Source of the DNA: Minisyncoccota bacterium
GTDB taxonomy: Bacteria > Patescibacteriota > Minisyncoccia > Phycocordibacterales > UBA6065
Length of the DNA: 64,000 bases
NCBI GenBank assembly: GCA_036400935.1
Contig: DASWWW010000003.1
Location: forward strand, 35,716 to 99,715
Reading direction: 5' to 3'
The notes beneath the pieces are model-generated. The model searched no databases, had not been told where the DNA came from, and saw only the letters and a list, made by a program, of their open reading frames with translations. Of this stretch, positions 23,010 to 26,300 are shown in pieces. Position 1 is the first letter of the stretch; every line of letters begins with the position of its first letter. The translations under genes and the position numbers were made by a program.

Positions 23010-26000
23010 GGAAATTTAAGAGCATATGGTGGATGCCTAGGCTTCTGAGAAGCGATGAAGGACGTTGTGTAGCGACGATAATTTCGGGGAGCCGCTGAAC
23101 GGGCGTTAATCCGAAAGTTTCCGAATGAGGCAACTCCTCTCATAGAGATATGAGAGACATTCACGTTTAACGTGAATGAGCGCACCCTGGGAAGTAAAAC
23201 ATTTCAGTACCAGGAGGAAGAGAAAACAAAGTCCGCGTATTGCGGACACAATTACCTTAGTAGTGGCGAGCGAAAGGGTAAGAGCCCAAACTCGGTCTAA
23301 ATCGCGGGATGCGTCGAAAGACGTAGGACGCGATTTAGATCGGGGGTTGTAAGGTGATGACGTTCCTATTTATAGGGGAAGAAGTCAAAAAATATTTTGT
23401 TAGAGTAAGTCACTGGAAAGTGACGCCCCAGAGAGTGATAGCCTCGTGCTCGAAAATAAAATATCTTCTTTGTTGTCATTCTTGAGTACCTCAGGACACG
23501 AATAGCCTGAGGGAATCCGGCGGGACTAACCGCCAAGGCTAAATATTCCAGAAGACCGATAGTGAACTAGTACCGTGAGGGAAAGGTGAAAAGCATCCCG
23601 GAGAGGGAGGTGAAATAGAACTGAAACCATATGCTTACAAGGAGTGGGAGCGGACCCCGCAAGGGTGATCCGTCACCGCGTGCCTATTGAAGAATGAGCC
23701 AACGAGTTGATGCATGCTGCAAGGCTAAGGGCTTGAAAGCCCGGAGTCGTAGGGAAACCGAGTGTGAATAGCGCGACTAAGTAGTATGCATCAGACCCGA
23801 AGCCAGGTGAGCTTGCCATGTGCAGGTTGAACTCTGTCGAAAGACAGAGGAAGGACCGAACGCTAGAGACGTGCAATACTCTGCGATGACATGTGGTATG
23901 GAGTGATAAGCTCATCGAACCTGGTAATAGCTGGTTCTCTCCGAAATATGTTTAGGCATAGCGTCGTTTGTTCCCAAGGGGGGTAGAGCACTGGAAGATT
24001 CTGACAGGTCGAAAGATCGCAGAACCTATCAAACTCCGAATACCCTTGGTTAAAAGAACGGCAGTAAGTCCGTGGGGGCTAAGCTCCATAGGACAAAAGG
24101 GAAACAGCCCGAATCTCAATTTAAGGTCCCAAAATTTATGCTAAGTACTAGGGAGGTGGTGGATCTTCTTCGACGGTGAGGATGTTGGCTTAGAAGCAGC
24201 CATCATTTAAAGAAAGCGTAACAGCTCACTCACTTAGAGGGTCTGCGCCGCAGATGATCGGGGTTAAAGCATAATACCGAAACTGAGGATTGCATTTGTC
24301 TTCGGACAGATGCACTGGTAGGAGAGTATTCTACTCTGCGATGAAGGCAAAGGGGTGACCCATGCTGGAGCGTGTAGAAGTAAGAATGTTGGCACAAGTA
24401 ACCACAATGCGGATGAGAAATCCGCACGCCGAAAGATTAAGGTTTCCTTCGCAATGGACTTCAGCGAAGGGTTAGTCGGGCCTAAGGGGATGGCGAAAGC
24501 CGTACCTGATGGACACACGGTTAATATTCCGTGACTTACAGTTGGTGCGATGGCATGACGGAGCACAGTATATGTAGCCCCTTATTGGATTGGGGTCTTT
24601 GGTCAGAGGGCGGGTGCCAGGAAAATCCGGCGCCCAGTCGTTGAATCGACGAGCCTAAGGACAGGAGGGAAGCTCTAGCTTGCTAGAGGGAACTACATAA
24701 AGCGGGCTTTCAAGAAAAGTGTCTAAGCATAACCAACGGTAATCCGTACCGAAAACCGAAACAGGTGATCACGTCGAGAAGACGAAGGCGAACGAGTGAA
24801 GGTCCTCCAAGGAACTCGGCAAAAAATCAGCCGTAAGTTAGCGATAAGGCTTGCCCTCTATTTATTTAGAGGGCCGCAGCGAAAGTATGCCTGGCGACTG
24901 TTTATCAAAAACACAGCTCCCTGCGAACTCGTAAGAGGATGTATAGGGGGTGACACTTGACCAATGCCAGAAGGTCAACCATCGGCGGTGCGATTATATC
25001 AAGCTGACTGATGTAAGCCCTGGTGAATGTCGGCGGTAACTATAACCGTCCTAAGGTAGCGCAATTCCTTGTCAGGTAAGTTCTGACGCGTTGAATAGTG
25101 TAACGTCTGGGCAACTGTCTCGGAGGACAGCTCGGTGAAAATACAATCCCGGTGAAGATGCCGGGTACCTGCAGTTAGACGAAAAGACCCTAGAAGCTTT
25201 ACTACAGCTTGATATTGAGCATACGATTGCGATGCGTAGCGTAGCGGTGAGACTTTGAAGTGCGCTTTCGGGTAGCATGGAGTCGTCGATGAAACAGCCG
25301 TCTTCGTTGTTGTATGTTCTAACCCCAAGGGCAAAAACCATGGGAGACAGTATCTGGTGGGTAGTTTTAGTGGGGCGCTATCCTCCTAAAAAGTAACGGA
25401 GGAGCCTATTAAGGTCAGCTAGCCGCGAATGGAAACCGTGGCGATAGTGTATGGGCATAAGCTGGCTTAACTGTAAGACGTACTTGTCGAGCAGATACGA
25501 AAGTAGAGCTAAGTGAACCGACCTTTCGCATTAGATGCGGGGGAAGATTATCGGACAAAAGCTACTCTAGGGATAACAGGCTCGTTCCGCCTAAGAGTTC
25601 ATATCGACGGCGGAGTTCGGCACCTCGATGTCGGCTCGTCTTATCCTGGGGGTGGAGAAGCTCCCAAGGGTTTGGCTGTTCGCCAATTAAAAAGGCACGT
25701 GAGCTGGGTTCAGACCGTTTAGATCGTGACGCTCTCATAGAGAATGTCATGCGCTAGACAGTCTGAATCCCTCGGACATCAAGGACAAAACGAGACACAA
25801 CCAATCACGGCGGTCGCGAAGGGTAACTTTCGCGCACGTCATCAACTTATTTCGGTAAAATCCACGCATGGTATGACATGCTGGGACAATACCGAGGGAA
25901 TTTTTGTTATGTAAAAGTAGCAAGATGCCCGTAGAGACTAAACGTTGATCTCCTTAATAACAAAATAGTTAAGGATGAAGATATAGTCCATTCCTCACAG

Positions 26001-26300
26001 CGATGTGAGAAAAGAAGCGTGAGACAGGTTGGTCTCCTATCTACTGCAGGCGTTGATTCTTGAGGAGCTTTGCTTCTAGTACGAGAGGACCGAAGTGAAC
26101 GGACCGCTGGTCTACCTGCTGTCACGCCAGTGGCAACGCAGGGTAGCTATGTCCGGAATGGATAACCGCTGAAAGCATCTAAGCGGGAAGCCAACTCCAA
26201 GATAAGGAATCGTTTGAGGGCCCTAGGAGACTACTAGGTTGATAGGCTTTAGGTGTACGCACAGCAATGTGTTAAGCCGAGAAGTACTAATTGCCCGATC
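23010..26300 (+). rRNA. rrl: 23S ribosomal RNA, interrupted by a group I intron at 25719-26027.
   Basis: Conserved blocks are present (ggtggatgcctaggc near the 5' end, GTAC-CGTGAGGGAAAGGTGAAAAG, the sarcin-ricin loop AGTACGAGAGGACCG). The flanks are complementary (aaatttcctaatagg / cttattaggaaattt), forming a processing stem. Confidence 0.9.
25719..26027 (+). ncRNA. Group I self-splicing intron, ORF-less, about 309 nt, inserted in domain V of the 23S rRNA (near E. coli positions 2585-2593).
   Basis: Mature 23S continuity ...GUUCAGACCGU | CGUGAGACAGGUUGG is interrupted by about 309 nt. The 5' exon ends in U and the intron ends in G. Group I core element S (AAGAUAUAGUCC) is matched exactly. 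Element R/P7 is recognisable (GUAGAGACUAAACGUUG). There is no endonuclease ORF. Confidence 0.75.

Follow-up and report, generated by a model that had tools for sequence, protein, structure and literature searches.

The position after U2593 of the 23S ribosomal RNA (rRNA; site L2593, Escherichia coli numbering) is the site of I-CreI, an enzyme encoded by Cr.LSU, which is a 23S intron in the chloroplast of Chlamydomonas reinhardtii. The present work concerns a group I intron at the same site in a bacterial 23S gene, found on a stretch of 64,000 nucleotides (nt) of contig DASWWW010000003.1 (positions 35,716 to 99,715, forward strand; assembly GCA_036400935.1, Minisyncoccota bacterium), which is called the window below. 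Introns at L2593 are known in cyanobacteria, in archaea and in bacteria of the candidate phyla radiation (CPR) (PMC1995217, PMC6125680, PMC11270868). The cyanobacterial ones are 744-748 nt long, carry a LAGLIDADG gene and have a P7.1/P7.2 extension of about 65 nt (Haugen et al. 2007, PMC1995217). Nawrocki, Jones and Eddy (2018, PMC6125680) classed L2593 introns as subgroup IA3, and among the 12 archaeal IA3 introns listed there 10 are at LSU/2593, several of them 306-323 nt long and without an open reading frame (ORF). For the CPR, a survey by Tsurumaki et al. (2024, PMC11270868) reported that, of the 433 group I introns that it counted in 23S genes, 222 lack an ORF; it named 2593 among the common sites and among those with LAGLIDADG_1, and classed the introns by Rfam model only, with no secondary structure.

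Nothing about where the intron sits, what kind of host it has or its being ORF-less is undocumented, and the intron described here is therefore one more example of a known element. What is less usual is a trait of its family, the way in which the 5' exon is paired, namely through a guide sequence placed far from the splice site and a further intron element complementary to the exon upstream of P1.

A group I intron in helix 93 of the 23S rRNA gene

A match to the Rfam model LSU_rRNA_bacteria was found at 23002-26311 (gathering thresholds, whole window). In its alignment a single large block, between ...CAGACCGU and (C)GUGAGACAG, remains unaligned and the rest is collinear, the upstream edge of the block being ...GGGUUCAGACCGU and the downstream edge GUGAGACAG. 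Pairwise alignment with rrlB of E. coli K-12, in which the numbering was verified at A2451, U2585 and A2602, agrees with this and places a 299-nt insertion after U2593, at window positions 25719-26017. An initial annotation of this DNA, made from the sequence alone, had likewise seen an insert in an otherwise collinear 23S gene. Excision of 25719-26017, and of no other span, gives back the conserved ACCGU/CGUGAG; a shift of the boundaries by one base does not. The start given in the initial annotation was thus correct, but its end (26027) and its length (about 309 nt) overshoot into the 3' exon by 10 nt (CGTGAGACAG), since the last base of the intron is G26017. The insertion splits the stem of helix 93 and adjoins A2602 and U2585. 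The length of the 23S gene, 3310 nt, is explained by the 299-nt intron at L2593. This is the one 23S gene that Rfam found in the window, beside a 5S gene (26420-26527), a 16S gene (41099-42595) and two tRNAs.

The initial annotation had called the insert a group I intron and had proposed a search with the Rfam model Intron_gpI and a fold of the core as checks. Both came out in its favour. Intron_gpI (RF00028) matched 25755-26010 of the window with 57.9 bits (gathering score 50, E 4e-12), in an alignment spanning model positions 1-253 of 253. The 5' exon ends in U (T25718) and the intron in G (G26017), and the two conserved core elements named in the initial annotation are in place, S (AAGATATAGTCC) at 25978-25989 and R (GAGACTAAACG) at 25934-25944. 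The intron folds at -94.2 kcal/mol with a z-score of -5.55, none of 200 shuffles being as stable, and its minimum free energy (MFE) fold recovers P2, P3, P4, P5, P6, P8 and P9.

The structure was then evaluated in relatives. We aligned 59 ORF-less relatives with MAFFT and projected on them the pseudoknotted structure of the window intron. The proportion of paired cells was 91.6%, a total that counts P5 one column out of register (67%; P5 is 99% paired in the correct register), compared with 77.3% in shuffles, none of 500 of which reached the observed value, and 32-45% when the strands were slid. The covariation score was 0.419 versus 0.152. Double-sided changes were present at nearly all pairs of P2, P3, P9 and a hairpin at the 5' end of the intron.

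All the features given here lie on the forward strand. The internal guide sequence, TCACG/GCGGTC, was read from the sequence at 25805-25815. Its second part, GCGGUC (25810-25815), forms P1 with the exon sequence GACCGU, with a wobble between G25810 and U2593, and its first part, UCACG (25805-25809), forms P10 with CGUGA of the 3' exon (C2594-A2598, CGTGA at 26018-26022). The exon strand of P1 is CCGT at 25715-25718, of which T25718 is U2593; it pairs with 25810-25813 in the 59 relatives and can be extended in the window to 25713-25718 (GACCGT). In the relatives P10 is 96% and the P1 core 99.6% paired, the U.G, G-C and C-G pairs with 25810-25813 being found in 59 of 59 and the fourth pair, C-G, in 58. 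At the other end the 3' splice site is marked by the terminal G (omega G, 26017), and each of the 59 aligned relatives likewise has a G before CGTGAGACAG.

P2, with a GUAA tetraloop, is a hairpin at 25815-25834 found in the MFE fold, and in the relatives it is 91% paired with double-sided changes at eight of eight pairs. P3 is formed by ATCAAC (25841-25846) and GTTGAT (25944-25949), with double-sided changes at six of six pairs and 89% pairing. The P4-P5 domain occupies 25852-25895, with P4 at 25852-25857/25890-25895 (99% paired), P5 at 25861-25863/25884-25886 and a distal P5a between its strands. It is followed by the P6/P6a hairpin (25896-25930), in which P6 itself, 25896-25898/25928-25930, is 100% paired. 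The 5' strand of P7 lies in element R (GAGACTA, 25934-25940) and its 3' strand in element S (TAGTCC, 25984-25989); the helix GACUA/UAGUC closes the P3/P7 pseudoknot and is 99.7-100% paired, with a switch between A-U and G-C (50 versus 8). A25935 is bulged before the G25936-C25988 pair, which we take to be the guanosine-binding pair by homology with the Tetrahymena core. P7 and the 3' strand of P3 are separated by 3 nt only (AAC, 25941-25943), so that P7.1/P7.2 is absent. Because this IA-type extension, a subgroup marker, is not present in the window intron, we do not assert subgroup membership. The P8 hairpin, taken from the MFE fold and the Rfam alignment, lies at 25951-25975, and P9, with a GCGA tetraloop, at 25994-26009 (95% paired, double-sided changes at five of six pairs).

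Identity, boundaries and site of the intron, its core helices and the exon/intron helix described below are established by covariation. We conclude with high confidence that 25719-26017 is a 299-nt ORF-less group I intron inserted after U2593, in helix 93, of a CPR 23S gene. The Rfam match, the splice-site U.G pair, the terminal G, the pairing of the guide with both exons and the covariation in the helices from P2 to P9 other than P8 all bear out the class named in the initial annotation, and the structure comprises P1-P10 with the P3/P7 pseudoknot.

The exon-pairing element and the distant guide sequence

Between the 5' splice site and the guide sequence there is a distance of 87 nt, which is taken up by the 5' hairpin (intron 1-39, 25719-25757), a 13-nt element that we call a' (intron 40-52, 25758-25770; ACAGTCTGAATCC, or ACAGUCUGAAUCC as RNA) and a spacer that is variable in the family (intron 53-86, 25771-25804). 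The hairpin, which is found in the MFE fold and sits in the P1 loop, shows double-sided changes at 10 of 10 tested pairs, with 87.5% of cells paired. The description of the intron as a minimal ribozyme in the initial annotation does not hold, since the P1 loop is elaborated by 86 nt and some relatives measure only 233 nt. Element a' is complementary to the 5' exon. It forms 10 contiguous pairs with 25706-25715 (GGGTTCAGAC, E. coli G2581-C2590), which comprise the end of helix 90, a part of the peptidyl-transferase ring and the start of helix 93, and it adds an A-U pair opposite U2593 and a C-G pair opposite G2592. Across the 59 relatives the pairing of 25706-25715 with 25761-25770 is kept at 98-100%, and where 2586 or 2588 has changed there are compensatory changes in the partner.

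Relatives were gathered in two scans. A scan of one genome per species with the pattern S element, 15-45 nt, CGTGAGACAG gave at least 120 loci, and a pattern scan of metagenomes gave at least 120 as well. Two architectures can be distinguished. Hosts with the common exon GAACGU have a short-P1 architecture, with the guide GCGUUC about 10 nt from the splice site. Most introns in the CPR-type exon, (A/G)ACCGU, have instead a guide ACGGCGG placed 60-130 nt downstream, preceded by a 5' hairpin and then by an element (A)AC(A/G)GUYURAAYCC; in a few CPR introns the same guide is 4-30 nt from the splice site and the element is missing.

In the family the element is complementary to exon GGGUUYARAC (2581-2590), in which 2586 and 2588 vary. 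Among the matches listed, we collected 141 unique introns with exon, element and guide, from the genome loci and from a metagenome scan in which the variable bases were left free. The partners at 2586 were C-G in 124, U-A in 13 and U.G in three of these introns, with one mismatch, and at 2588 they were G-C in 86, A-U in 48 and G.U in seven, with no mismatch. None of 2000 shuffles reached the observed pairing at the two positions. By parsimony on a neighbour-joining tree of the 59 ORF-less members, built from core columns, there were about six independent double switches at 2586 and nine to ten at 2588. The other variable positions of exon and element showed only wobble-compatible changes. In a sample not selected for the element, made up of genome loci among the matches listed, at least nine contiguous exon/element pairs were present in 45 of 58 introns in CPR-type exons and in one of 39 introns of other hosts. 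In the window the exon/element duplex has a calculated energy of -15.4 kcal/mol; a P1 of 6 base pairs (bp) reaches -8.2 and P10 -4.5, and the hairpin of the mature helix 93 has -6.9.

Two other pairings were considered and rejected. When the intron is folded alone, its MFE structure contains a local hairpin that joins a' to bases further downstream (intron 43-59), but in the relatives this hairpin is paired at 48%, the same as the slid controls, and it is possible in the window only. An exon-pairing element in introns of GAACGU-type exons was also sought and gave only scattered, wobble-rich 8-bp matches, which we attribute to chance.

Two sequence repeats near these elements are recorded here. 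Immediately 3' of a' most relatives (L014, L077 and L119 among them) have CCGAGG, a repeat of the 3' strand of P4 (ACCGAGG) that could compete for the 5' strand of P4; the window has CUCGG at this place. Intron bases 7-11 (CGUGA, 25725-25729) repeat the first five bases of the 3' exon, a feature shared only with the closest relatives (L088 and L101) and absent from the wider family; pairing of these bases with the stretch of the guide that forms P10 is conceivable, either as an extension of P1 or as a competitor of P10.

Proposed splicing and alternative explanations

As far as can be judged from sequence, guanosine-initiated self-splicing is the best-supported mechanism. The transcript would adopt the canonical P3-P9 core, with the P3/P7 pseudoknot and the G-C guanosine site in P7, and the guide UCACG/GCGGUC would align both exons via P1 and P10. 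An external guanosine would cleave after U2593 and the freed 3'-OH of the exon would attack after G26017. Ligation would restore helix 93 and the peptidyl-transferase ring, with the junction GACCGU-CGUGAGACAG.

Within this scheme we propose that a' acts as an exon clamp that extends P1, and the pairing is consistent with two versions of such a role. In a stacked version, P1 would form on exon positions -1 to -4 and the element on -5 to -13, giving a stacked pseudoknot. In a version where a closed hairpin comes first, the exon, the 5' hairpin and the element would be continuous, with U2593 paired to a conserved A, and the last four exon bases would next be passed on to the guide sequence. Both are compatible as successive states, and in either one the intron would hold the 5' exon and so keep the peptidyl-transferase strand from misfolding until ligation. 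The searchable literature, with most subscription journals outside it, gave no description of a helix with the exon upstream of P1 or of a distant guide in group I introns. Perhaps, and we suggest this tentatively, CPR-type L2593 introns have a natural two-part guide, in which a P1 of 4-6 bp is combined with a helix of 9-10 bp with 2581-2590, so that about 13 exon bases are read. If true, such a guide would keep hold of the 5' exon from the first splicing step to the second and prevent the peptidyl-transferase centre from folding too early, and it could make an ORF-less intron specific enough for its target to spread by reverse splicing into 23S rRNA.

A number of points weigh against these proposals and are taken up here together with the explanations that compete with them. 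Splicing in vivo is what structure and conservation point to, and the RF00028 score is just 8 bits over the threshold, because the general model fits the 5' third of the intron poorly. P8 is paired at only 54-57% in the relatives and at 75% after a slide of one column, MAFFT misaligning this variable stem; the low value is probably due to a register problem in the alignment. A score so close to the threshold would also suit an insert that is not spliced at all, whether a decayed intron remnant, an expansion segment or an intervening sequence of the RNase III type, which would be retained or cut without ligation. The group I intron in the 23S rRNA of Simkania is reportedly unspliced and is a possible precedent. 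Nevertheless, we consider an unspliced insert very improbable here, given that each core helix is intact and, P8 apart, covarying, and that the U.G pair, the terminal G and P10 vary little or not at all among the 59 relatives. The sole 23S gene in the window carries the insert, and a stem as close to A2602 and U2585 as that of helix 93 would hardly accommodate 299 extra nt. The marks of an RNase III intervening sequence or an expansion segment are also missing from the insert, which has a group I core and interrupts a conserved stem, and whose ends are unpaired with each other and form none of the long terminal stems typical of RNase III intervening sequences.

For the role of a', the clamp and P1 cross topologically, so that they are possibly alternative and not simultaneous, and exon positions -4 to -6 are contested between the two in the window. 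The exon and a' might form an inhibitory alternative hairpin (exon, 5' hairpin and a', with a U2593-A25758 pair) that masks the 5' splice site, would have to open to let P1 form, and so acts as a folding delay or switch and not as a clamp. The MFE fold calculated with the exons predicts this very continuous hairpin, the bases opposite G2592 (C in 58 of 59) and U2593 (A in 44 and G in five of 59) are conserved, and the hairpin and P1 compete for the final four exon bases. We regard an inhibitory hairpin as possible but somewhat doubtful, because the overlap is limited to -1 to -4 and the nine pairs at -5 to -13 can coexist with P1, on which they would stack, and because the base opposite C2591 is mostly mismatched. 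A mandatory switch is also made unlikely by the introns in the same exon context that have no element (L033, L039 and L090, with the guide 4-30 nt from the splice site). The same introns count against an essential clamp: since they occur in the same exon context, the clamp is accessory and not required. The clamp and the inhibitory hairpin are not mutually exclusive. A different objection concerns the helix itself. Homing co-converts some flanking exon bases, 2586 and 2588 are only 5-7 nt from the insertion site, and the shuffle controls ignore relatedness; the association of exon and intron could thus be inflated, and the complementarity could be a by-product of co-conversion and shared descent, with no selection for an RNA helix. 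This is unlikely, because linkage predicts association and would not account for its being always complementary: 140 of 141 and 141 of 141 combinations pair, with no A.C. Moreover, the roughly six and nine to ten switches were obtained on a tree from other columns, every one-sided change still allows a wobble pair (R opposite U, Y opposite G), and the slid controls fall to 2-57%.

Relatives, mobility and comparison with known systems

The loci listed are mostly from Patescibacteria (Saccharibacteria and Parcubacteria/Paceibacterota), with further hosts in Omnitrophota, Eremiobacterota, Proteobacteria, Planctomycetia and Thermosynechococcus. Among the matches listed, the introns fall into two length classes, about 233-320 nt and about 690-830 nt, and the closest introns are those of a Parcubacteria metagenome-assembled genome (MAG) (L088, 87%) and of a Taylorbacteria locus (L095, 78%), followed by Paceibacterota loci. 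For the 23S exons of the window, identity is 96-98% with L088, about 96% with L095 and 91.5% with L052. From this identity of 96-98% to Parcubacteria/Taylorbacteria MAGs, the host is by sequence a CPR bacterium, Parcubacteria/Paceibacterota-like, in agreement with the CPR-type lineage suggested by the initial annotation. The intron looks vertically inherited within a Parcubacteria clade, evolving faster than its exons.

Some individual relatives are worth mentioning. At E. coli 1931, a known intron site, L088 (2394-2605) and many other CPR loci have an additional insertion, at least about 210 nt long, and the window 23S has none there (25057/25058); intron content therefore varies between genomes with 96-98% identical 23S exons. 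L151 (188-526) has two extra hairpins between P7 and the 3' strand of P3, at the position of P7.1/P7.2, and the 58 other relatives and the window have none. L038 (MBAA01000200.1), labelled Promethearchaeota, has a 734-nt L2593 intron in a bacterial-type exon, and Nawrocki et al. flagged this contig as bacterial, not archaeal (PMC6125680).

The longest ORFs inside the window intron are of 56 and 58 amino acids. They gave no Pfam match at E up to 1 and no endonuclease remnant, and the initial annotation was right that the intron has no homing-endonuclease ORF. In the window P6/P6a is a hairpin of 35 nt, at the place where ORF-bearing relatives have a LAGLIDADG gene: in most long relatives a gene of about 148 amino acids with a single motif lies between the 3' strand of P4 and P7, i.e. 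in P6, and the ORF of one of them matches Pfam LAGLIDADG_1 (E 6e-8). A LAGLIDADG gene in P6 is also the known arrangement of I-CreI. Long introns (at least 550 nt) make up 17 of the 121 complete introns of the distant-guide architecture, and about 86% of the closest family is ORF-less, both among the matches listed. The initial annotation had thought the intron probably immobile. The window copy indeed cannot home by itself, but immobility does not follow from this, as the I-CreI-like LAGLIDADG enzymes of relatives could act in trans; mobilisation in trans or by reverse splicing is possible, and a lack of mobility is at most suggested by the missing ORF.

Other features of the rRNA genes were noted in the window. 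The 23S gene has an 86-nt insertion in domain I (23312-23397, after about E. coli 289), which folds into two hairpins and has no Rfam match. It is conserved in L088 (84%) and L052 (81%), among the closest relatives, and probably represents an expansion, or an intervening sequence, specific to the lineage. Two shorter insertions follow about E. coli 227 (16 nt) and about 1500 (13 nt). The order of the rRNA genes is unusual and they are not linked, with 23S-5S first and the 16S gene 14.6 kb downstream on the same strand; between 5S and 16S lie genes for a FtsW/RodA family protein, a sugar transferase, a trypsin-like peptidase and an APH-family kinase, and one tRNA. The 16S gene is 1497 nt long and has no intron.

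With regard to rRNA intron sites or ORF-less forms this intron brings nothing new, since both are already catalogued for the CPR, and the opinion of the initial annotation that the site and the ORF-less state were worth documenting is not shared here: L2593 is well known and ORF-less CPR introns have been surveyed. The boundaries given above are of value for annotation, as they allow correct reconstruction of the mature rRNA. The exon/intron helix with its distant guide offers a natural test case for how a short P1 is held and how an intron copes with an rRNA exon that folds on itself, and it gives a testable idea of how ORF-less rRNA introns might retain target specificity.

Cr.LSU shares the U2593/C2594 site and the R and S core elements with the window intron, which differs in being without an ORF, in having about one third of the length, and in having its guide 87 nt off with an exon-pairing element. 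The exons also differ, GACCGU...CAGGUUGG in the window and AAACGU...CAGUUUGG in Cr.LSU. With the cyanobacterial L2593 introns (Synechococcus C1 and C9, Thermosynechococcus elongatus) it has in common the site, the group I core and a short P5 and P2, whereas the ORF and P7.1/P7.2 are present only in the cyanobacterial introns; in the Thermosynechococcus locus found here (L030) P1 is short, as usual, and an exon-pairing element is absent. The archaeal LSU/2593 IA3 introns are at the same site and in the same size class, in archaeal hosts. The group I introns in CPR 23S genes belong to the same radiation and element class, and their survey contains neither a distant guide nor an exon-pairing element (PMC11270868). 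In engineered trans-splicing group I ribozymes an extended guide likewise adds pairing beyond P1, which tightens the grip on the substrate (PMC3895272). However, those extended guides pair downstream of the splice site and are placed at the 5' end of the ribozyme, whereas the helix of the window pairs with the exon upstream of P1 and is placed in the P1 loop. The two-part exon binding of group II introns (EBS/IBS) is comparable by analogy only, the two ribozymes being unrelated.

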